This document shows, piece after piece, positions 639 to 62,932 of a DNA stretch of 64,000 bases. Numbering within the stretch: the first letter of the stretch is position 1; every line of letters starts with the position of its first letter. The position numbers were made by a program, and so were the translations under genes. The stretch lies in the sequence record KP869111. One strand, 5' to 3'. The notes beneath the pieces were generated by a model. It was not told the origin of the DNA. It was given only the letters and a program-made list of their open reading frames with translations, and ran no database searches. The stretch is from Escherichia coli O157 typing phage 13.

Positions 639-839
639 TCACAAGTTACGTTTAAAAATTTCTGCTACTTCAAGAAGTTCTTCTTTAGTAGCTGTATCGG
701 TTTGTATTTTATATCGAATTTCTTTAAAGCGTTCTTTAAAGGACTCTGCTGACTCGATATCAAAAAATCTTTGGATAAGCCGGAATTCCCGGAGCACTGC
801 TTTATCAAAAAGTTCCAAGTCCACGTTATATGTTCTCAT
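639..839 (-). CDS. small protein, rIIA.1-like by position
   Basis: 66-aa ORF ending 12 nt upstream of rIIA ATG; position as T4 rIIA.1; weak SD. Confidence 0.4.
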   Translation of the reverse strand: MRTYNVDLELFDKAVLREFRLIQRFFDIESAESFKERFKEIRYKIQTDTATKEELLEVAEIFKRNL

Positions 840-931
840 AATATTCTCTTCAGTAGATTCCTAGGGCACTATTACTAAAGACCATATAATCTATCATCTT
901 ATGTGTAATAGTGCCTCAGGCGATTCAGGAT

Positions 932-2032
932 TTACGCTGTGAAGATTTTATCCCACATCGCAACAACTGCATCTCGGTTATACTTCTTCCATACTGCTTC
1001 AGCACGTTTAACTCGAGCTTCGTATGTGTCAGTGAATTCTAATACAGCTTTTGTGTAAAGCGCAACTACTTCTTTCTTAGGAGTAGAGGAATCAATTTCT
1101 ACACGCACAGTATCTGGGTCGTATTCGAATGTCGCATGAGGATAATCCTTAAAAACTAACTGGATTACAGGGACACCTTTAGAGATGGCTTCAATAGAAC
1201 TATTCTCTACCGTACCTGTGTCAGGACACGTATTAATAAGTGCTTTAGCTGTTTTAAGACGTTCCATAATTTCACTGTGTGGAGCATCAATAATAACAGG
1301 ATATTTAGCTGGTGGTGCCCATTTACTAGGACAGTATCCTGCACCATTTTCGCCTAGTGCTTTAATCGCTTCAAGAGCAACATCAGTACGACGCATTTTA
1401 GTGTCATAACGTTGTGCACTAATAATCAGATCAGTCGCCGGAAGAACTTCAGGTTTCTCATTCAAACAAATAACCGGATAATCTTCGGCTTCAAACAACG
1501 GATTTGCTCGCCAATAATCATAATCAATTTTGTCAGTCAGACCTGAAGTCATATAACAATATTTACGTTCAAATTCACGGAAGGCTTTAGTAGGAGCATA
1601 ACTCTTACCACCATTCTTATGAATTTGAATAGTCTGGTCCCAAATTTGAACAATGCCACGAGATACCGGTTCAAACGGTGTTGCCATAAAATTCTTATGA
1701 ACTTTAGAGAGACCTGCGTCTTTAATTGCCTGAACGGTTAGTTTAGTCGGTTCCATAGTAACAACGAAATCGTATTCATGGATGCCGGCTAGTTCAACAA
1801 TCTTACGAGCCATAGTATAACTCATACCTAGACTGAATTTAGTCAGATGACCAACAGGATGATGATTAACCTTCCAATCACCAAATGTGTCATTATCAAA
1901 ACCAATATAATCAATATCGGCACCGATAGAAACTAAATATTTCAACACATTTAAATGTACTGCTTCAAGACCACCTTGTACACGGTCAGGATTAAATGGG
2001 ACTGCACGAGATGGGATAAACATAACTTTCAT
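932..2032 (-). CDS. GT-B fold glycosyltransferase, candidate DNA 5-hmC glycosyl (arabinosyl-type) transferase
   Basis: 366 aa; C-terminal E-x4-E-A-I-S-K-G-V-P-V-I motif typical of GT4/GT-B donor-binding domain; ATG with AAGG SD; sits between gene 39 and rIIA where T4 has gene 60/mobA. Confidence 0.55.
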   Translation of the reverse strand: MKVMFIPSRAVPFNPDRVQGGLEAVHLNVLKYLVSIGADIDYIGFDNDTFGDWKVNHHPVGHLTKFSLGMSYTMARKIVELAGIHEYDFVVTMEPTKLTVQAIKDAGLSKVHKNFMATPFEPVSRGIVQIWDQTIQIHKNGGKSYAPTKAFREFERKYCYMTSGLTDKIDYDYWRANPLFEAEDYPVICLNEKPEVLPATDLIISAQRYDTKMRRTDVALEAIKALGENGAGYCPSKWAPPAKYPVIIDAPHSEIMERLKTAKALINTCPDTGTVENSSIEAISKGVPVIQLVFKDYPHATFEYDPDTVRVEIDSSTPKKEVVALYTKAVLEFTDTYEARVKRAEAVWKKYNRDAVVAMWDKIFTA

Positions 2033-2058
2033 AATTAAGCCTTATTAAAATTAAAATG

Positions 2059-2076
2059 AAGCTCCCAAAGGAGCTT
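2059..2076 (-). terminator. hairpin (AAGCTCC-TTTG-GGAGCTT) overlapping gp39 stop, followed by T-rich tract
   Basis: 7-bp perfect stem seen directly; downstream CATTTTAATTTTAAT on minus strand. Confidence 0.5.
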
Positions 2077-3892
2077 AGGACATCCATTCTTTACGAAGTT
2101 CTGAATCATCACCCAACAACATTTCAAAGAGTTCTTTCCAATTTTCAGGAAGTTTAACTACGTCGTACACAGGGTTCTGAATCATTTCACGATATTCTGA
2201 CTTTTCAAGGGAGCCTAATCCCTTGATGTATCGAATACTATGCTTAGGCAGTGTATCTTTAACTTCTTCATACTCAGCTACAGTATAAAACCATTTTTGA
2301 GCTTTGCCAATTTGTGCAATAATTACAGGCGTTTTAACAAAGCGAATACGTCCTTGTTCAAACAATTCAGGCCAATTACTAAAGAAAGCAAGCAAAGCCG
2401 GATAGATACTTCCAAGACCGTCGTGATCTGCATCAGTCATAATTGCAATATTACGATAGTTCGTATTCTCTGCCTTTTCACCAAGAATAAGACCTGTGAT
2501 AGCACAGATATCAAAGAGCTCTTTGTTCTTCATCATATCAGCATATGACATACCCCAGCTATTCATCACCTTACCACGTAATGGGAATCCGCCGTGTAGT
2601 TCACGGTCACGAACATCAATGAGATAACCAATTGCAGAATCACCTTCTGTTAAGAACAATGTCGTATCTGCATCTTTACCACATTGGTTAGCTTTAATAT
2701 GCTTATGAACCTTAGCTTTAGTTGCCTTTTTAGCTGCTTTAGTTTCTGCAGCCTTTTCTGCTGCCAATTTACGAGCTAATGCTGCTTCAACAATAGGCAT
2801 AATCAAGGCTTCGTTTTTAAGAAGTGCCTGAGCAATTTTCTTAGCATCTAATTGGATATGATTACGAATATCACCATACGTTGACGTTAAACGTTCTTTA
2901 GTCTGAGAATCAAAACGCATGTTGCTCATGTCTCTAATAAACATCAACATTGTGAGGCATTCTTTAACACGAGCTTTAGTGACTTCAATACCCTTATATT
3001 TCTTTTTAATACCCGGCAAAAGATGTTCGCAGATATCGTCCATTACACATTCAACATGATGACCACCATTTTTAGTATGGATGTTATTCACATAAGTTAA
3101 ATGACGGAAGCCATCTGGTGATGTTGTGAATGCTATAGAGACTTTATCATTTTCTTGAATGATGTTATCTTCACCAAATTGTTTAGCAAATCGTTTAAAA
3201 TTACCATCAACCTTTTTACCATTAAATGTGAACTTGATATCAGGATAAACGACTGCCAATGTTTGAAGTCGGTCTAAAGTAATATCTAAATAAATTTGAG
3301 ATAAATTATGCTCTTCAAATGAAGAGAAATCAGGAGTGAAGATTACTTTAGTGCCTTTACCTTTAGATTTCTTAGAAGACCATGATTTGTTTTCCATTCC
3401 GTTTGAACAGTTAACAGTGATTTCATTTTCGCCATCTGACGTGATGCCTGTAAACAACGTAGAGAAGATATTAGTTAAACTACTCCCGACGCCGTTCATA
3501 CCACCAGTCTTGCGTTCAGAATCATCGCCAAAGTTACCACCAGCTTTTGGAATAGTCCAGGCTGCTACAGGCCCAGGAATTTGTTCACCTGTTTGGTCGG
3601 TAACTAAACCTTGAGGAATACCACGTCCGTTATCTTCCACCGAAACTTGATTATTTTTAATTTGCACATCAATTTTATTTGCAAACTTAAATGATGTACG
3701 AATAGCTTCATCAACCGAGTTGTCAATAATCTCATCGATTAATTTAACCAGACCAGGAACATATTCAACTTGTTGATATTTACCAAACAAAAAACGCTCG
3801 TGGGCTTCTTTGGCCGAAGAACCAATATACATGCCACTACGTTTCTTAATATGTTCTACATCTGACAGTACCTTAATTTCATTTTTAATCAT
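2075..3892 (-). CDS. 39: DNA topoisomerase II large (ATPase, GyrB-like) subunit, single ORF covering the T4 gene 39 + gene 60 functions
   Basis: 605 aa; GHKL ATPase motifs (NGRGIP, GGxxGxG) and Toprim (EGDSA, DADHDG); strong GAGGAG SD; no hop or intron interruption. Confidence 0.9.
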   Translation of the reverse strand: MIKNEIKVLSDVEHIKKRSGMYIGSSAKEAHERFLFGKYQQVEYVPGLVKLIDEIIDNSVDEAIRTSFKFANKIDVQIKNNQVSVEDNGRGIPQGLVTDQTGEQIPGPVAAWTIPKAGGNFGDDSERKTGGMNGVGSSLTNIFSTLFTGITSDGENEITVNCSNGMENKSWSSKKSKGKGTKVIFTPDFSSFEEHNLSQIYLDITLDRLQTLAVVYPDIKFTFNGKKVDGNFKRFAKQFGEDNIIQENDKVSIAFTTSPDGFRHLTYVNNIHTKNGGHHVECVMDDICEHLLPGIKKKYKGIEVTKARVKECLTMLMFIRDMSNMRFDSQTKERLTSTYGDIRNHIQLDAKKIAQALLKNEALIMPIVEAALARKLAAEKAAETKAAKKATKAKVHKHIKANQCGKDADTTLFLTEGDSAIGYLIDVRDRELHGGFPLRGKVMNSWGMSYADMMKNKELFDICAITGLILGEKAENTNYRNIAIMTDADHDGLGSIYPALLAFFSNWPELFEQGRIRFVKTPVIIAQIGKAQKWFYTVAEYEEVKDTLPKHSIRYIKGLGSLEKSEYREMIQNPVYDVVKLPENWKELFEMLLGDDSELRKEWMS

Positions 3893-4455
3893 GTTGTCTC
3901 CTCGTTATGAAGGTATTCTATCATCCGAAATCTAAAGCAAANNNNNNNNNNNNNNNNNNNNNNNNNNNNNNNNNNNNNNNNNNNNNNNNNNNNNNNNNNN
4001 NNNNNNNNNNNNNNNNNNNNNNNNNNNNNNNNNNNNNNNNNNNNNNNNNNNNNNNNNNNNNNNNNNNNNNNNNNNNNNNNNNNNNNNNTTTTAACTGTAA
4101 TGACCACATCACCTGATACGATCACCGAACCATCAACAAATTCTATAGAGCCTTTTTTGAAATCGACAGCTGTATCTGGTTCCGGAACTTCTTCAAAGAA
4201 TTTAAATTCTGCACCATAAATCAGAATATCACCTTGCATACTAATGATTGTACGTCCAGGTCCATCGGTTTCAGCGGCAATCATTGAAACACCGTAGCCA
4301 ATCATCTCTTCTACAATAAAATCTCTTGATAATAAAACCGTATGCAGAGTAGTGTTAAGACGTTTACCAGTCGTATTAAGAATTCTCAAGAAATTATCTT
4401 CCTGTCCTTTGATAATACGATATTTCTTACCAACTTCAAAACCTTTAAAAGCCAT
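3889..4455 (-). CDS. hypothetical protein (ORF spans assembly gap)
   Basis: 188-codon ORF whose stop overlaps gp39 ATG (ATGA); middle 49 codons are N; C-terminal segment carries the gp39 SD. Confidence 0.4.
   Translation of the reverse strand: MAFKGFEVGKKYRIIKGQEDNFLRILNTTGKRLNTTLHTVLLSRDFIVEEMIGYGVSMIAAETDGPGRTIISMQGDILIYGAEFKFFEEVPEPDTAVDFKKGSIEFVDGSVIVSGDVVITVKXXXXXXXXXXXXXXXXXXXXXXXXXXXXXXXXXXXXXXXXXXXXXXXXXXCFRFRMIEYLHNEETT
3942..4088. other. assembly gap (147 N)
   Basis: run of n characters. Confidence 0.95.
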
Positions 4456-22479: not shown

Positions 22480-23028
22480 TTAACGAGCCCATTTGATGAT
22501 TTCTGTAATCAAATCATTACGTTCGCTTGCATTAAATCCTATAACTTTGTTAGCACCATCATGATTAAGTAATTGATACGTTTGGATTTTGTTATGAATT
22601 GCAAACTCTTCAAAATGTGAAATGACTGTATTAAAACCGAATGAAGACAAAGTGATAAGGTCGTCTTCAAAACTTTCAGTCATTTCGTTACGTGTTAAAA
22701 TAATTGTGAACACATCATGGTTTTGGCAAAGACGAACATAATCCTGTTCATAAACGTCAAGAACCGAGTCCGCATCTTGTCGAATACGTCCATAAACCCA
22801 GTTACTAATATATCCACGGTCTAACAGATAAATCTTAGTAGGGTCTAAATAATTCAACATCGTTTCGAAACAGCCAACTTCATTTCGAGACTTAACATCG
22901 AAACGTCCATCAACTGTTCGTTTAGGGAAATCAATCTTTACATATCTTTCACTAATTTCCATTATGTCATTAATGAAAGTTGTTTTACCAGCATTATCCG
23001 GGCCATCTACTAAAATAATTTTAGCCAT
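22480..23028 (-). CDS. P-loop kinase (NMP-kinase / thymidylate-kinase-like fold), substrate unknown
   Basis: 182 aa; Walker A LVDGPDNAGKTTF; GAGGAA SD; no T4 counterpart recognised at this position. Confidence 0.5.
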   Translation of the reverse strand: MAKIILVDGPDNAGKTTFINDIMEISERYVKIDFPKRTVDGRFDVKSRNEVGCFETMLNYLDPTKIYLLDRGYISNWVYGRIRQDADSVLDVYEQDYVRLCQNHDVFTIILTRNEMTESFEDDLITLSSFGFNTVISHFEEFAIHNKIQTYQLLNHDGANKVIGFNASERNDLITEIIKWAR

Positions 23029-23029
23029 T

Positions 23030-23929
23030 TTATTCCTCGATTACGACATCTTCATATTTAGGTATATTATACGGTGAAGAAATTAAAGCATTAAAGTAGA
23101 TGAACTCACCAAGACCTGGATGAAATACTTCTTCAGGATTTTCGAAATATTGAATCTTCGGACGTCCTTTAAGAATTTGATAGTACTCAGTTTTAGTTGG
23201 TTTAAAAATTCGAATCAACGCTTCTTCAGGATACTTATTTCTGTCGAAGCTATTATTTGGATCGGTTATATAAAGCGGTTGACCTAATTGAATTGCGCAT
23301 TCAACAACTTGTTCAAAACGATAGCATGGGTCACTAATTCGAAATGGATGAAAAATACCATCTAGATGAATAGGAGCCAAATCACCTACAAGACGCTGCA
23401 TGATGGAAGGACGTATAACTTTCTGCGTTACGATAATCTTATTACCATCTGCACCTGCGTTAACCAGCACTTCTTTTTGACGTTCATTCAACACAGTAGT
23501 TTGAAGTGAACGATTAACCGACAACATATCAGTTTTTAAGAATTCGTCAATATAAAAACGTGGTTTATTAGGGTCTGCAGTGATATTGAAATTGAATTCC
23601 ACATCAAAAGCGCCGTCATATCCAGTGATATCTGTGATTAAAAAATCACAATCATAATAAGCAATTAATGAATCAACAACAAATTCATTTTCAGACCAGA
23701 AATATTTACGAGTGTTATACGCGTTATCTTTATACCATAATGGAACAAACTTAAATTCTGGAAAAAGACGTTCGCATTCTTTAATATCAGATGCATTACG
23801 TGGATATGTAATCACATCACCCGGATTAGCACGGTGCAAATGAAGTTGGAAGTTGCCATCCTTAAGGATAGCATACTGTCCAGTTTCATAAGACCGCATA
23901 CTCAAGATTGGTACGCGGAAAATAGCCAT
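23030..23929 (-). CDS. hypothetical protein, possible second glycosyltransferase (beta-gt position)
   Basis: 299 aa; C-terminal EQVVECAIQLGQPLYI loosely resembles GT-B EA..G.P(V/L) motif; TAATG overlap with upstream gene. Confidence 0.45.
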   Translation of the reverse strand: MAIFRVPILSMRSYETGQYAILKDGNFQLHLHRANPGDVITYPRNASDIKECERLFPEFKFVPLWYKDNAYNTRKYFWSENEFVVDSLIAYYDCDFLITDITGYDGAFDVEFNFNITADPNKPRFYIDEFLKTDMLSVNRSLQTTVLNERQKEVLVNAGADGNKIIVTQKVIRPSIMQRLVGDLAPIHLDGIFHPFRISDPCYRFEQVVECAIQLGQPLYITDPNNSFDRNKYPEEALIRIFKPTKTEYYQILKGRPKIQYFENPEEVFHPGLGEFIYFNALISSPYNIPKYEDVVIEE

Positions 23930-24645
23930 TAGTCAAGGAATCCTTTAACATAATCAAAATCACGTTCAAACACATGGGCACTTACCATGGTATGAGTATA
24001 ATCACCAACTTCTACCCCACATTCGTTAGCGATATAATGAAGTAATTTTCCTTGGAGATAAAAATCCAACTGCATAACAACAGCACAGTTCTGAGAACGC
24101 ATATGACAGTGGGTATAAAGCTTACCATCACGAATATAATAAGTCACTGAGTCAGTACATGGATATTCAAGCGTTTCGTCCGAATCAAGCAAAGCCTGAT
24201 CAGAACTTTCTAGAATTTGGAACACAACTCTTCGAGAGTTAGGCTTCTCTTTAAGTTCTTTTAGAAGAGCTGGTAATTGGGCCGCAATGCGAGGACCATA
24301 GAAAGTGTTGAAGTTCGCCGGCAAAACATCTGATTTTGGTTTAGAAATAAATTTAGCGACATTAGGATATGCCTTAAACGCTTCTTCTGCGTTGGTACCA
24401 CCAGAAATCATAAACTTCCAGAAGTCTTCGGCATATTCATAAGAGATGCGGTTAATACGTGGGTCGGTCATTTTGAATGATGATGGAGTGTCAACAACTA
24501 CTGTCATAGACCCAATTTCATTACAACGTCCAATACGAGAATCAGTTACGAATTCCGGGTTTTCTAAAATTTCACGATTGACTGCTTTAAATGCGGTTTG
24601 AAAATCTGCGGCTTTGATATATTTCATTGTGTTATGTTTTCCCAT
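23929..24645 (-). CDS. pyrimidine hydroxymethylase of thymidylate synthase superfamily (dCMP hydroxymethylase, gene 42-like but divergent)
   Basis: 238 aa; NSRRVVFQI, YPCTDSVTYYIRDGKL (catalytic Cys), MRSQNC, SAHVFERDF align to T4 gp42 / TS motifs; GAGGT SD. Confidence 0.6.
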   Translation of the reverse strand: MGKHNTMKYIKAADFQTAFKAVNREILENPEFVTDSRIGRCNEIGSMTVVVDTPSSFKMTDPRINRISYEYAEDFWKFMISGGTNAEEAFKAYPNVAKFISKPKSDVLPANFNTFYGPRIAAQLPALLKELKEKPNSRRVVFQILESSDQALLDSDETLEYPCTDSVTYYIRDGKLYTHCHMRSQNCAVVMQLDFYLQGKLLHYIANECGVEVGDYTHTMVSAHVFERDFDYVKGFLD

Positions 24646-24687: not shown

Positions 24688-24927
24688 TTATTTGAATTTC
24701 TTGACAATGTTGATATAACGTAAAGCTTCAGCATCGATACTTCCAAGAACACTATGAAGAAATGCATCAGCGTAGTATTCCAATTGAACAGGTTCTTTAA
24801 TCACTTTAGCCGCTTTAGTTTCAAACAGGCCCATCAGGGCCTTTTTAAGAATTTGTTCGTTGCTGTTAATTTTCATAGTCAAAATCTCTTCATTAAGTTG
24901 GTGGTTAAAAGTTTTTCTAGAAATCAT
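24688..24927 (-). CDS. small acidic protein (weak carrier-protein-like LGSID motif)
   Basis: 79-aa ORF; ATGA overlap with upstream gene. Confidence 0.4.
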   Translation of the reverse strand: MISRKTFNHQLNEEILTMKINSNEQILKKALMGLFETKAAKVIKEPVQLEYYADAFLHSVLGSIDAEALRYINIVKKFK

Positions 24928-26084
24928 TCCGGGTACCTCAAAGCGTCATCAGAGTTAGTTATATCAATAATAGATATAGAGTTTTCTGCTAACCCGTTTT
25001 TAGATAATTGACGTTTATAATATCTTTCACAATATGTACACGTCGTCCCGCAGATTTCATTAGCACAATCGAAATCTGGATGTCTGAACCACCTTTTTTC
25101 TAAAAAGCCATCTAACAAAGAGGTTTCAATATTTACTGTATGTGAAAACTCAGTTTCGTTTTCAAGAGTGAAAATAGTCTCTAAAGGCTTCCACAGTTCT
25201 AACAAATTACCTTCAAACTTTTCAGAAGCGTATGCTTCAAGAACTTTCAAAATGTAGTCTGTGCTACCTGTACGTCCTGAAACTTTGAATTGAGTGATAC
25301 CAATATCATTATAAAGTTTCAAATCTTGAGGACGAACAAAACGAGTTCTCAACCAGTTAAATGGGTCTGTATCACGAGCTTTAATACAGTGCTGCATAGG
25401 ATATCCGTTTAAGGATTTAGCATCATCAGCTGTAACATCAGTACTATGGAAAATATAGCAAGAGTCACGATAGCTACAATGTGTTGTATACCCTTTACCA
25501 GCATTAGAACAGAACTCATTTACAAGAACTTCAAATATTATATTGTTCTTATTGCAAAACTCTGCTGCACGCTTCAGGAAAGAAACTGAACGGTTCTTAT
25601 GAATTCCACAGCAGACCTTTTTGATATTATACTGGTCATGCAAGTATTTGATTTGAGTTACAGCATCGACATGTAGAATTGTTGAAACTTCAATCTCAAT
25701 GTCTTTATTGACTTCACGAACAATTTCCATAACAACAGGGTTAGCGATAGTAATACGCCATACGCCTATTGACCAAAGATACTGAACATAATCCTGAATA
25801 GCTTTCTTCTTCCACCCAACTAGTTCTCTTTTTGAACCAGGATTTATCGTGTTGAGTGTATAGTTAAAGCAAATACCTAATTCGTTACAACGTTTAACGT
25901 AATCTTCTAACATCTTTTTGTCAACGTCAGGAAGCCTAAAATCAGGTCTGGCTGCTACAAAAGCCATTTCTCTTGTAGAGCCGTATACTTCGTTTATCAA
26001 GCTATTAGGATAAGTTTTATTGAGCTCTACGATTTTATCAAGAAGAGCTAAATCAAAATTCGTTCCAATTTTAAAAGTATTCAT
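24924..26084 (-). CDS. Cys-rich protein of uncertain family (possible Fe-S enzyme; peptidase-U32-like or radical-SAM-like features)
   Basis: Track M1 is GTG; ATG at MNTFKIG; Cys clusters EFCSNAGKGYTTHCSYRDSC and C-terminal CANEICGTTCTYC (CxxxCxYC spacing). Confidence 0.45.
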   Translation of the reverse strand: MNTFKIGTNFDLALLDKIVELNKTYPNSLINEVYGSTREMAFVAARPDFRLPDVDKKMLEDYVKRCNELGICFNYTLNTINPGSKRELVGWKKKAIQDYVQYLWSIGVWRITIANPVVMEIVREVNKDIEIEVSTILHVDAVTQIKYLHDQYNIKKVCCGIHKNRSVSFLKRAAEFCNKNNIIFEVLVNEFCSNAGKGYTTHCSYRDSCYIFHSTDVTADDAKSLNGYPMQHCIKARDTDPFNWLRTRFVRPQDLKLYNDIGITQFKVSGRTGSTDYILKVLEAYASEKFEGNLLELWKPLETIFTLENETEFSHTVNIETSLLDGFLEKRWFRHPDFDCANEICGTTCTYCERYYKRQLSKNGLAENSISIIDITNSDDALRYPE

Positions 26085-26140
26085 TTTTTTGCATCTCACG
26101 TTAATTGATGCGATGGTTTTTGCAGGTCTTACTTAAATTA

Positions 26141-26527
26141 TTATAGATTCGGTTTATATGATTTAAATGTTTCGAATTCGCCTTTATTCATAAGAGCTTT
26201 GAATTCGTCAGGACGCATAGCTTTGTCGTCGATAATCCAATCATATACTGGTTTATGTGTTAGCAAATTATGGTACTTCAAACCAATGTTTTCCAAGTTC
26301 TGAATCAGACTTGGGAGAATGTCAATTGCTATACGACCAGGACCTACTGACTTCATACCGCGAGCAGTGTAAAGCGTTATGGTATGCCCTGCATCATACA
26401 GGGCATTAATAGCAGTCACCATTTCGACGTCTGGTTTGAAGTTCACGTAATCACGATTGTTATTCCACTCTGTTATACAATCATCGACATCAAAACAAAG
26501 ATTAAGCATGTTTTCTACACGGTGCAT
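26141..26527 (-). CDS. HAD-superfamily-like small phosphatase
   Basis: FDVDDC (motif I-like DxD), conserved K, IIDD (motif IV-like); start at ATG overlapping upstream stop. Confidence 0.5.
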   Translation of the reverse strand: MHRVENMLNLCFDVDDCITEWNNNRDYVNFKPDVEMVTAINALYDAGHTITLYTARGMKSVGPGRIAIDILPSLIQNLENIGLKYHNLLTHKPVYDWIIDDKAMRPDEFKALMNKGEFETFKSYKPNL

Positions 26528-28212
26528 TAGATTCGTTCCCATTGATGAGTGATATCGCCACCGATTGGACGATAAGAAACACCAGTTTCTTTATCAGTTA
26601 GTACCCATTTACCAGGATTTTTTGTAATCAGAGTAGCCGTTACAGGTTCTGCTACGTCATAACTAATAGAGCCGTCCTGAAGTACACGGCCCATGTTACG
26701 TAATTGCTTAGTCAGAAGTTCCATACCTTTATAATATGCGGCTACCGCTTTAAGTGGATTATTCTTGAAATAACCACCTAATGCAATCCAGATAATTGCT
26801 ACAGCCAAATGATGATACTCGTTAAACGAACTCATCTTTCCATATTTGTAAACTAATGGATTGATGTTAATAGTCACATTACAAGTTGTTTCGTCAATAG
26901 TAAACTGTCCCCAGGTCGGATTAGCGTTGAATTCATCATAACCTGAAACAGCATAAAGCACTTTAGCTTCATCATACAATTTTGGCCCGTAAATCTTGGT
27001 TTCGCCAAAATATCCACGAGGGTCGATAAACTTGACTTCGCCGTTATCAGTAATCATAGTATTACTGAAGTTCGGGTCACCGTGAATAACAGAGTACTGT
27101 CCCTGAGAACGGGTATGATAACGAATAAGATGTTCTAAAGCTTGCTTCAGCATTGGCTTCAGACGTCCAATCTTAGTGTAGTTCACGTGTGTGATTTTAC
27201 CAAATGAATCAATCAATGGCTGAATGCTTTCACAACGATCAATAACTTTCGTATAGAACTCTTTAGTGAAATCACGGCGAACAGTTTCAGGACTTACAAA
27301 ATAAGTGTCTGTGCTGAATTTCAGTGCATCTAAAATTGCATCAACAATTTGTGGACGAGCAAGACTTGATTTGGATTTAATATATTCAAATGCTGGCTTA
27401 CCTTTAATACGTTCCATTTCAAAATTATTTTCATTTACCGAAACTAACTGAGGAACTGAATCTGATTTCACTTTCAAATACCATGAAATCTCATCTTTTT
27501 GAAGAGCTCGACCTTGTTCGGTTAACGCGAATTTAGTTACAGTTTCTTCGCCAATTTCAACTGCATTAAAACTACGATTAAGTTCACGAACTTCATGAGC
27601 TTTTTCAAGTTTAGGCATATCACCTAAATCAATTAGATTCATAAGCTCTGATTTATTGAATGCACTGCCGTAAAGGAATTCTACGAAATCACGTCCTTTG
27701 CAGTATTCATGAATTTCCTCATCAGTAGAACCCATGTAGAATTCCCAGTCTTTGAACTGATAAATTCCTACAACATTACCGCCTGTTGAACCTACGTTAG
27801 TGATATTTTCACCATCGAAATTATATCGACATTCATCACCCTTAACATAGATTGCGTTAACATTCCAAGACCATGAACCAAAATCAGGAATAATATCACA
27901 CCAGTTAACAATTACGTTATGGCCATCTAAATCTTTGTATAATTTAGCAAGAGCATAAGCAGAACCATACGCTTCATCAACTGTACGAATAGTCACATTG
28001 AACCCTTCTTGCTCGCAATAAGCTCGAACAGTTTCAGCAAATTTTGAATGAACTACTACAATAATTTCATCTGCGCCAAGGTCAGAATAAATTGTATACA
28101 AATTGCTCAGAATAGTGTCTTGTTTATAGTTAACAAGAACTTTTGGAATATGATGCGTTATTGGATACAAACGAGTTGCCAGTCCAGCACCAAGAATAAC
28201 AGCTTTTTTCAT
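26527..28212 (-). CDS. bifunctional sugar-1-phosphate nucleotidyltransferase (N-term) / small-molecule kinase of APH-choline-kinase fold (C-term)
   Basis: 561 aa; N-terminal ILGAGLATRLYPIT (RmlA/GlmU-like); C-terminal HGDPNFSNTMI...IDP (Brenner kinase motif); GAGGA SD. Confidence 0.65.
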   Translation of the reverse strand: MKKAVILGAGLATRLYPITHHIPKVLVNYKQDTILSNLYTIYSDLGADEIIVVVHSKFAETVRAYCEQEGFNVTIRTVDEAYGSAYALAKLYKDLDGHNVIVNWCDIIPDFGSWSWNVNAIYVKGDECRYNFDGENITNVGSTGGNVVGIYQFKDWEFYMGSTDEEIHEYCKGRDFVEFLYGSAFNKSELMNLIDLGDMPKLEKAHEVRELNRSFNAVEIGEETVTKFALTEQGRALQKDEISWYLKVKSDSVPQLVSVNENNFEMERIKGKPAFEYIKSKSSLARPQIVDAILDALKFSTDTYFVSPETVRRDFTKEFYTKVIDRCESIQPLIDSFGKITHVNYTKIGRLKPMLKQALEHLIRYHTRSQGQYSVIHGDPNFSNTMITDNGEVKFIDPRGYFGETKIYGPKLYDEAKVLYAVSGYDEFNANPTWGQFTIDETTCNVTININPLVYKYGKMSSFNEYHHLAVAIIWIALGGYFKNNPLKAVAAYYKGMELLTKQLRNMGRVLQDGSISYDVAEPVTATLITKNPGKWVLTDKETGVSYRPIGGDITHQWERI

Positions 28213-28253
28213 GTTGTGGTCCTCATTGGTAAGTAGGTGTATTGTACACTATT

Positions 28254-28397
28254 CTAGTTAAAGCATTCATACTTTGCTTGTAGTCCAATCATAATCCATC
28301 CAATTACAAGTGTTGGAATCATTACTGGAGCCGTTAAGCTCCAGTAGATAGTCATGACAAGCATCAATAGTAAAAGTCCTATTGTTATTGCTTTCAT
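28254..28397 (-). CDS. small hydrophobic membrane protein (47 aa)
   Basis: Own translation MKAITIGLLLLMLVMTIYW...; ATG overlaps SIS-gene stop (ATGA); not in ORF track. Confidence 0.4.
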   Translation of the reverse strand: MKAITIGLLLLMLVMTIYWSLTAPVMIPTLVIGWIMIGLQAKYECFN

Positions 28398-29029
28398 TGT
28401 TCGCCTCGTAACATGGCACCTAGTGCACCGCCTGGATGGAACTTAAGAAAGTCATTAGAGGTAAATCCACGTTCAGACGAAAGGTTGATAGCAAACGTAT
28501 CGATAAGCGCTAACAACAATGTAGTGGACATAGTCGGAGCCAGAGAATTCTCATCAACCTCTACCGCGATGCCTGTACAGAAAGAGTAATCAAAAAGGGC
28601 TTCATTTTCTTGCGGAATGTCTGGGTTACAATGCAACAGAATCTGTTTGACATTTGGACGAATCATTTTAAGATGCTTAGCCACGCCTATCATTTCTTCA
28701 GTCTTACCAGAACGACTAATATGAATCAACACATCATTAGGCGCAATGAATCCTGCATCACCGTGAGAATAATGCCCAGTGTTCAAGTACATACTCGGGA
28801 TACCGAGTGAAGCAAATGTCTCAGAAGCTTTAGTTGCAATATTAGCATTCTTACCAACACCTGTAATAATTACTCGGCTTTCATAATTACTAAGTCCAGG
28901 GCGTCGAAGAGTTTCTAGAATAGCATTATAACGAGCAGGGTTTTGACTAATTACTTTGGCCATAGCGGCCAAAGAAGAAGCTTGTTTTATGATTGCGTCA
29001 ATAGCGATAGTAATAGGAGTAGTTTTCAT
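28394..29029 (-). CDS. SIS-domain sugar-phosphate isomerase (arabinose-5-phosphate isomerase KpsF/GutQ-like, no CBS domains)
   Basis: 211 aa; ITGVGKNANIATK...HGDAGFIAPNDVLIHISRSGKTEE...APTMSTT...HPGGALG match the API/SIS signature. Confidence 0.7.
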   Translation of the reverse strand: MKTTPITIAIDAIIKQASSLAAMAKVISQNPARYNAILETLRRPGLSNYESRVIITGVGKNANIATKASETFASLGIPSMYLNTGHYSHGDAGFIAPNDVLIHISRSGKTEEMIGVAKHLKMIRPNVKQILLHCNPDIPQENEALFDYSFCTGIAVEVDENSLAPTMSTTLLLALIDTFAINLSSERGFTSNDFLKFHPGGALGAMLRGEQ

Positions 29030-62506: not shown

Positions 62507-62932
62507 TTATACTCTAGGCTTTTGAGCTTGTTTGGTATTGGATTCCCATGCGGCTTTGGTAATTTTGTTAGTGGCATAACCAAAGGCATTAGATAGAACA
62601 CCTTTAGAGTTGAATACATCCAATCCAATAAGTACACCGGCTGTGTTAAATTTAGGAGCAAAGTACGCATTAGTTTTAGAAAGAGCTTTTTTCAATTCNN
62701 NNNNNNNNNNNNNNNNNNNNNNNNNNNNNNNNNNNNNNNNNNNNNNNNNNNNNNNNNNNNNNNNNNNNNNNNNNNNNNNNNNNNNNNNNNNNNNAGGGTC
62801 TTGAACCAAACCATCAAAAACGCCTTTACTATTTACTTTATATGTTACTTTGGGATTTTTACCTTCTTCGATAGCAGCTTTCTGTTCCGCAGATAATGTA
62901 ACTTCAGTGATAAACTCCTGATATGTTTTCAT
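62507..62932 (-). CDS. head internal protein (IP) with capsid targeting sequence; ORF spans assembly gap
   Basis: N-terminus MKTYQEFITE is the T4 IP capsid-targeting signature; 32 codons are N. Confidence 0.5.
   Translation of the reverse strand: MKTYQEFITEVTLSAEQKAAIEEGKNPKVTYKVNSKGVFDGLVQDPXXXXXXXXXXXXXXXXXXXXXXXXXXXXXXXXELKKALSKTNAYFAPKFNTAGVLIGLDVFNSKGVLSNAFGYATNKITKAAWESNTKQAQKPRV
62699..62794. other. assembly gap (96 N)
   Basis: run of n characters. Confidence 0.95.

Follow-up and report, generated by a model that had tools for sequence, protein, structure and literature searches.

A GT-B glycosyltransferase gene between gene 39 and rIIA.1 of an RB69-like phage, probably encoding a chain-extending enzyme of DNA arabinosylation

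The alpha- and beta-glucosyltransferases of phage T4 (CAZy families GT72 and GT63, respectively) are phage GT-B enzymes that transfer a sugar from a UDP-sugar donor to a modified cytosine after replication, and the purpose they serve is the evasion of restriction. In phages T2 and T6, a beta-alpha-glucosyltransferase adds a second glucose to produce gentiobiosyl-hmC, which makes it a closer functional analogue of the protein examined here. The DNA of phage RB69 carries arabinose, and the product of RB69 ORF003c was proposed on the basis of HMM searches to be a GT-B arabinosyltransferase (Thomas 2018, PMC6024577). Subsequent MS/MS and NMR analyses identified the base in RB69 DNA as 5-hydroxycytosine rather than hmC (Lee et al. 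2026, PMC13326640), and RB69-type DNA is now described as containing arabinosylated 5-hydroxycytosine (PMC13326640, PMC13390438). Two nucleosides have been reported for RB69, namely alpha-D-Araf-5hodC and beta-D-Araf-(1->3)-alpha-D-Araf-5hodC (PMC13326640). In the same work, RB69 gp48 is the producer of 5hodCMP, gp46:47 is designated 'arabinosyltransferase 1', and gp3 (the ORF003c product) is designated, as a hypothesis, 'beta-arabinosyltransferase 2' (PMC13326640). A two-transferase arrangement, with one gene located in the sugar island and the other in the gap between rIIA and the topoisomerase gene, has been described both by Lee et al. (PMC13326640) and in a 2026 paper on the Durham Collection. 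As reported by a paper citing the original work, deletion of the arabinosyltransferase 'Aat' in phage Bas46 renders it sensitive to a defence system. The proposal that this gene encodes a transferase is therefore already known, having been published in 2018 and refined in 2025-2026.

The window analysed in this study is the entire 64,000-nucleotide stretch of Escherichia coli O157 typing phage 13 (KP869111), which is identified by tblastn as an RB69-like Mosigvirus. A sequence-only reading of this DNA had drawn attention to a 366-aa ORF between gene 39 and rIIA that carries an E-x4-EAISKGVPVI motif, and both the ORF and the motif are present (Table 1). The gene, hereafter called gp3 for its RB69 counterpart, lies more precisely between gene 39 and rIIA.1, as expected for Mosigvirus genomes, and the gene order is identical to that in the RB69 annotation. 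The reading had also contrasted this site with that in T4. Indeed, T4 carries rIIA.1, 60, 60.1 and mobA in this interval, whereas its glucosyltransferase genes are located elsewhere, with b-gt adjoining gene 42 and a-gt between genes 47 and 55. A tblastn search with both T4 proteins (best E = 1.6) agrees with the earlier statement that the window carries no homologue of either enzyme. A recent foreign origin of the gp3 gene was considered on the basis of composition and rejected, because its GC content of 0.37-0.40 equals that of its neighbours.

Table 1. Features of the transferase locus and of the partner island in the window.
Feature	Coordinates	Strand	Basis
rIIA.1, downstream neighbour, followed by rIIA	639..839	-	Pfam T4_RIIA1, E 2e-30
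Strong stem-loop in the 92-nt spacer from the transferase stop to the rIIA.1 start	860..920	-	inverted repeat
Gene for 366-aa GT-B glycosyltransferase, RB69 ORF003c/gp3 family (PHROG 8302); DNA arabinofuranosyltransferase, role probably that of the second, chain-extending enzyme	932..2032	-	ATG to TAA ORF
Predicted nucleotide-binding motif E276-NSSI-E281-AISKGVPVI290, C-terminal domain	1163..1207	-	translation
Shine-Dalgarno AAGG, 7 nt 5' of the ATG (2032..2030)	2040..2043	-	sequence reading
7-bp hairpin, loop UUUG, overlapping the gene 39 stop, then CAUUUUAAUU	2059..2076	-	terminator scan
Gene 39, unsplit topoisomerase II large subunit, 605 aa, upstream neighbour	2075..3892	-	Pfam DNA_gyraseB, HATPase_c, Toprim
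Nucleotide kinase, RB69 gp45 equivalent	22480..23028	-	99.5% identical to RB69 gp45; annotation
299-aa protein, RB69 gp46:47 equivalent, proposed first (base-proximal) arabinosyltransferase	23030..23929	-	position; PMC13326640
ThyA-like 5-hydroxy-dCMP synthase, RB69 gp48 equivalent	23929..24645	-	Pfam Thymidylat_synt; function from PMC13326640
Sugar-activation part of the island	24924..29029	-	Pfam; roles from PMC13326640, section 27
U32-like protein	24924..26099	-	Pfam
HAD-type phosphatase	26141..26542	-	Pfam
Bifunctional kinase/UDP-sugar pyrophosphorylase (NTP-transferase/kinase)	26527..28212	-	Pfam only
SIS-domain arabinose-5-phosphate isomerase	28394..29029	-	Pfam

The gp3 gene is flanked by two hairpins of very different quality. 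The one on the gene 39 side (AAGCTCC-TTTG-GGAGCTT, read from 2076 to 2059 on the minus strand, with CATTTTAATT behind it) overlaps the TAA of gene 39, as the sequence-only reading had observed. However, to regard it as a terminator of the transferase gene's own asks too much of a modest hairpin at the gene 39 3' end. The folding energy of the 61-nt hairpin region is -13.1 kcal/mol (z = -1.33), which 20 of 200 shuffled sequences match. In addition, our scan returned four terminator-like sites in 4.6 kb compared to 2.5 +/- 1.6 in shuffles, such that a terminator function for this hairpin is poorly supported. The same stem is found 3' of gene 39 in RB69, where the loop is UUCG instead of UUUG. 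Stem-loops unrelated in sequence also reside right after the gene 39 stop in T4 (GCGGG-GTAAAA-CCCGC) and directly behind it in the Dhakavirus QL01, and in these two phages, which are without a gp3 gene, other genes come after the gene 39 hairpin. Because hairpins are present at this site in phages that do not carry the gp3 gene, the element is to be assigned to the gene 39 3' end and not to the transferase gene. We therefore rejected a terminator specific to gp3, for which the fold is also unexceptional. The distance from the hairpin to the ATG is only 26 nt, which leaves no space for a promoter, and thus the gp3 gene must be transcribed by read-through from upstream.

The stem-loop on the rIIA.1 side, which the sequence-only reading missed, is much stronger. 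It is formed by a 16-nt inverted repeat with 88% complementarity, and has a centroid fold of -28.5 kcal/mol and a minimum-energy fold of -29.5 kcal/mol (z = -3.7; 1 of 200 shuffles). The possibility that this hairpin is a repeated cassette element was rejected because its arm is no commoner in the window than expected by chance.

The identity of the protein is clear from close relatives. It is 99.7% identical to RB69 ORF003c (NP_861693.1) at the same length, 100% identical to its orthologues in E. coli O157 typing phages 3 and 6, and 98.1% identical to the orthologue in the BASEL phage Bas47 (AlbertHofmann), which is annotated as a 'putative hmC-arabinosyltransferase'. It matches PHROG 8302 over residues 1-366 of 366 (E 5.9e-223), and is 99% identical to the solved structures PDB 9iqz (apo) and 9ir0 (with UDP), which were released in July 2025 under the title 'phage HY126 glycosyltransferase'. 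These structures presumably derive from the HY126 work of He et al. 2026. Thus, gp3 is the Mosigvirus RB69-type ORF003c enzyme, a member of a published and crystallised family. The RB69 and HY126 versions represent the same gene at the same length and position with the same flanking hairpins, and they differ by only a few substitutions.

By sequence, this family is very narrow. Two word-indexed homology searches with gp3 yielded only 10 clusters, and a HMMER search across 1.84 billion representative proteins gave 26 matches at E <= 1e-3, of which approximately eight are true family members. A search of gp3 against Pfam, including Glyco_transf_4 and Glycos_transf_1, gave no match even at E <= 10, and a search of the PDB with the family profile recovered the self structure alone. 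The weaker HMMER matches bear Pfam Glyco_transf_4 and Glycos_transf_1 domains, and profile-profile comparison (hhalign) of the gp3 family with Pfam-verified GT4 proteins gave a probability of 99.9% and E 9e-31 over 360 columns. Within the family, E276 is invariant and E281 is nearly so. The alignment to the GT4 relatives places E281 at the second Glu of the EX7E motif and T272 at the position of the first. Hence, gp3 lacks the canonical EX7E, and the invariant E276, located four residues past T272, creates E-x4-E in its place.

A model of gp3 was generated by AlphaFold (AF2) with an 11-sequence family alignment, which gave pLDDT 90.8 and pTM 0.87 compared to pLDDT 37.5 for a single-sequence run. 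The model superposes on 9iqz/9ir0 with TM 0.95-0.97 and exhibits two Rossmann-like beta/alpha/beta domains with an inter-domain cleft. The GT-B fold that the sequence-only reading had predicted, and for which it had suggested structure prediction as a check, is therefore the fold obtained, with GT4-type enzymes as the nearest neighbours. The best explanation for these data is that gp3 is a soluble two-domain GT-B glycosyltransferase of GT4-like architecture. Its membership in GT4 is established at the level of profile and fold, and not by Pfam thresholds or the canonical motif.

Beyond its architecture, gp3 departs from the cellular members of this group. Identities to the retaining GT4-type enzymes BshA, PimA, MshA, WaaG and sucrose-phosphate synthase are 10-14%. 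Unlike these proteins, gp3 would use a furanose donor and an acceptor that is itself a sugar on DNA, and its product linkage is reported to be beta. No sequence homology was detected between gp3 and T4 a-gt (GT72), and neither sequence homology nor close structural homology was found to T4 b-gt (GT63). Furthermore, the T4 enzymes transfer another sugar, use hmC instead of 5hoC, and take the base as the acceptor, whereas gp3 would take a sugar. A nearer relationship exists to gp76 and gp77 of Acinetobacter phage DLP3 (equivalent to Kimel orf074 and orf075), which belong to the same family with 41-43% full-length identity and the same conserved residues, and which act on arabinosylated 5hoC DNA with UDP-Araf (PMC13326640). 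In DLP3, however, the two genes form a tandem pair within the island and both are needed for a third sugar, whereas the phage examined here has one copy located 21 kb away and two sugars.

The partner locus is an island between uvsX and gene 43 at approximately 22.5-29 kb. The modification system is indeed split over two loci, as the sequence-only reading had argued, with the gp3 gene at one and the sugar-nucleotide genes at the other. Five of the island proteins (the kinase, the ThyA-like protein, the U32-like protein, the HAD phosphatase and the SIS isomerase) were compared with their RB69 counterparts and are 94-100% identical to them. The genome thus encodes a 5hodCMP synthase and the genes for UDP-Araf synthesis between 22480 and 29029. 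Because the RB69-type base is 5-hydroxycytosine, and because the ThyA-like protein is 99.2% identical to RB69 gp48 but only 25% identical to T4 gp42, the hmC acceptor assumed by the earlier reading has to be abandoned.

The 299-aa protein is of particular relevance to the function of gp3. Its ORF is intact here, whereas in the RB69 reference a 1-nt insertion splits it into ORF046c and ORF047c. This is in agreement with Lee et al., who remark on a sequencing error (PMC13326640). The gene fills the slot of T4 b-gt, in that it adjoins the ThyA-family gene on its uvsX side. Searches for glycosyltransferase features in this protein by Pfam and by phmmer and hmmsearch against the PDB were all negative, and hhalign comparisons revealed no similarity to GT4 or to gp3, such that its assignment as a GT-B enzyme comes solely from Table 1 of PMC13326640. 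Nevertheless, it is a candidate for a further transferase of the system, and probably the primary one.

We consider it very probable that gp3 serves this pathway as a DNA arabinofuranosyltransferase, and likely that it performs the second step by extending a chain that has already been started. The distribution of the two proteins is consistent with this division of labour. The 299-aa protein is present in 348 phage records, comprising at least 138 protein clusters, from phages of Escherichia, Acinetobacter, Klebsiella, Serratia, Enterobacter, Proteus, Yersinia and other hosts. The gp3 family is present in 211 records, all of which are Mosigvirus-type or Acinetobacter-type (E 1e-3, with either paralogue as the query). 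Viewed by lineage, the 299-aa protein is a constant companion of the island, whereas the gp3 family is confined to those lineages whose chains are di- or tri-arabinosyl. The phages with analysed DNA in the island lineages are all arabinosylated, and they amount to the handful on which this phyletic argument is built. Among them, the Mosigviruses RB69, NP, Bas46 and Bas47 have one gp3 each and carry mono- and di-arabinose (PMC13326640, PMC13390438, PMC12923530), and the DLP3-type phages have two gp3 paralogues and up to tri-arabinose (PMC13326640).

Genomic context provides another link between gp3 and the island. In Acinetobacter phages and in one metagenomic contig, gp3 homologues are found within or directly beside the island, unlike the arrangement in the phage examined here. 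The Acinetobacter phage Kimel carries two tandem homologues inside the island (41-43% identical to gp3), with the genes for the kinase, the ThyA-like enzyme and the 299-aa protein as their neighbours. The gp3 homologue of metagenomic contig L006 (41% identity) shares 4 nt with the beginning of a gene whose product is 48% identical to the 299-aa protein, and a kinase homologue (48% identity) comes next. Contig L005 is a counter-example, with its gp3 homologue near ligase and DsbA genes. The two Acinetobacter paralogues are 56% identical to each other, and gp3 is equidistant from both (41-43%). This places gp3 as an outgroup to the pair, and one-to-one orthology with gp77 is therefore not established.

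The sequence-only reading regarded gp3 as the transferase that uses the island's NDP-sugar, a view that overlaps with the earlier HMM-based proposal and employs the same kind of reasoning (Thomas 2018, PMC6024577). Membership in the pathway is upheld, but the notion that gp3 is the sole or base-proximal transferase is not, given the more widely distributed 299-aa candidate in the island. It could be argued that gp3 does attach the first sugar, leaving the 299-aa protein to add the second or to do something else. After all, gp3 is the only protein of the system with glycosyltransferase features that are detectable by sequence, it was the one picked for crystallography with UDP, and the fold of its presumed predecessor is a literature assignment. 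We nonetheless regard this order of events as unlikely. Approximately 137 phage records have the island and the 299-aa protein but no gp3 homologue. One of these is phage LC53, whose DNA is still arabinosylated, specifically mono-arabinosylated (bioRxiv 10.64898/2025.12.19.695335). Likewise, phage Thanatos is mono-arabinosylated and has a single arabinosyltransferase, which is syntenic to gp46:47 (PMC13326640). Moreover, the DLP3 homologues of gp3 lengthen existing chains. With UDP-Araf as the donor, gp76 and gp77 together attach a third arabinose to the DNA of RB69, whereas no single DLP3 transferase exhibits activity on plain 5hoC DNA (PMC13326640, section 26).

The requirement for both DLP3 proteins in that assay, with gp76 or gp77 inactive alone, also raises the question of whether gp3 might be a partner that is needed in a complex with the 299-aa protein and that catalyses no separate step (PMC13326640, section 26). 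The 4-nt overlap of the two homologous genes in the metagenomic contig noted above would fit such an arrangement, as it suggests coupled expression. We judge a purely accessory role to be quite improbable, however, because 21 kb separate the two genes in Mosigvirus and their transcription contexts differ, because the match of one, two and three transferases to one, two and three sugars fits sequential action, and because gp3 retains the conserved nucleotide-binding residues and, going by the title of 9ir0, binds UDP by itself in the crystal. It is harder still to believe that the acceptor of gp3 is not DNA but, for example, a lipid, a small molecule or a protein of phage or host, and that the association of gp3 with DNA modification is a coincidence. 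The recurrent proximity of family members to the arabinosylation island, seen independently in two lineages, restriction of the family to phages with multi-arabinosylated DNA, and the in vitro activity of gp3 homologues on DNA (PMC13326640) all speak against this idea, which we consider exceedingly remote.

Our preferred model, in which gp3 extends the chain, combines what was seen in this analysis (the ORF, its fold, the family to which it belongs, the tie to the island and the narrow spread among phages) with published data on the chemistry of the DNA, on UDP as a ligand and on what the Acinetobacter homologues do. From these we infer that gp3 itself carries out the second step. In this process, 5-hydroxy-dC supplied by the ThyA-like enzyme would be incorporated during replication, and the 299-aa transferase would then attach the first alpha-D-Araf to O5 of the base. 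Subsequently, gp3, which is predicted to bind its UDP-sugar in the C-terminal domain, would add a second arabinose at O3 of the first to yield beta-D-Araf-(1->3)-alpha-D-Araf-5-hydroxy-dC in DNA. The donor for gp3 would most likely be UDP-D-arabinofuranose made by the island genes at approximately 24.9-29 kb. Presumably, the thicker sugar coat would offer broader protection from host nucleases.

The stereochemistry of the product adds a further aspect. In RB69 DNA, an alpha linkage comes first and a beta linkage second (PMC13326640, section 23), and the close structural neighbours of gp3 are all retaining enzymes. Both transferases are said to resemble retaining GT4 enzymes. If the alpha and the beta linkages, which draw on one UDP-Araf pool, are formed in succession from a single donor anomer, then one of the two enzymes must break the rule of its family. 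We tentatively raise the possibility, which we consider rather unlikely, that gp3 is the exception, namely an inverting furanosyltransferase in a retaining-type fold family that acts on a glycan borne by nucleic acid. If true, then an enzyme in which the canonical EX7E has lost its first Glu would join a furanose by a beta-(1->3) linkage to a sugar that DNA already carries.

The finding of a GT-B transferase gene at this site is real, and the guess that it uses the nucleotide-sugar of a distant island, with the system spread over two loci, proved largely right. The corrections are that the base is 5-hydroxycytosine, that the island carries what is probably the primary transferase in a form that is invisible to sequence searches, and that gp3 likely adds the second arabinose. 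More generally, the gp3 family appears to set the number of arabinose units per cytosine in T4-like phages. This number is reported, in papers that cite the original studies, to affect escape from restriction enzymes, glycosylases and CRISPR systems, and is therefore relevant to the choice of therapeutic phages and to the engineering or sequencing of such genomes.

Gene 39 and rIIA.1 flank a slot that is variable among the T4-like genera and that holds the 366-aa glycosyltransferase gene (gp3) in typing phage 13. Dhakavirus QL01 possesses the arabinosylation island and lacks a gp3 homologue, and its slot is filled by two small hypothetical ORFs. Typing phage 13 differs from T4 in having neither the gene 39/60 split with the gene 60 translational bypass nor mobA, and its gene 39 is a single ORF of 605 aa. 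Two runs of N are present in the window, at 3942-4088 (147 bases) and 62699-62794 (96 bases), and the protein encoded by the ORF at 3889-4455 is only partly readable because the first of these runs falls inside it.

Stem-loops are located directly 3ˊ of the gene 39 stop codon in the window, T4 and QL01, where their sequences are unrelated and the downstream genes differ. The loop of the window example reads UUUG, whereas RB69 carries the classic UUCG tetraloop. A strong stem-loop also occupies the spacer between gp3 and rIIA.1. Its centroid fold has a predicted energy of -28.5 kcal/mol, and its minimum-energy fold (-29.5 kcal/mol, z -3.7) was equalled by one of 200 shuffles. No U-run follows the structure on its 3ˊ side, the 3ˊ arm has one uncompensated change in RB69, and further copies of the arm across the window are not above chance.

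Coordinates of the features discussed
Feature	Sequence	Position	Remarks
Stem-loop	Window	860-920	Within the spacer from transferase stop to rIIA.1 start; arms CCTAGGGCACTATTAC / GTAATAGTGCCTCAGG, loop 29 nt
Stem-loop after gene 39	Window	2059-2076	
Stem-loop after gene 39	T4 (L003)	~3749-3764	
Stem-loop after gene 39	QL01 (L004)	~2912-2937	
Two small ORFs	QL01 (L004)	2951-3514	Hypothetical
Gene 39	Window	2075-3892	
299-aa protein	Window	23030-23929	
ORF046c + ORF047c	RB69 (L009)	2098-2998	
Peptidase-U32-like protein	Window	24924-26099	Middle of island
gp3-family gene to kinase homologue	Metagenomic contig (L006)	450-3019	Logan SRR26937416

Within the island, the 299-aa protein is encoded by a single unbroken ORF, whereas a 1-nt insertion in the RB69 reference record splits it in two. 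Its RB69 equivalent (gp46:47) has been published as the first arabinosyltransferase (PMC13326640). Sequence similarity to any glycosyltransferase family was not detected by Pfam, PDB sequence search, or hhalign against GT4 and gp3. The pathway steps described in the literature searched give no role to the peptidase-U32-like protein.

A third arrangement of the arabinosylation system is found in the metagenomic contig, where a gp3-family gene is followed by a homologue of the 299-aa protein and then by a kinase homologue. Because the gp3-family gene overlaps the start of the 299-aa-protein homologue by 4 nt, this organization suggests that both transferases are translationally coupled in that phage.
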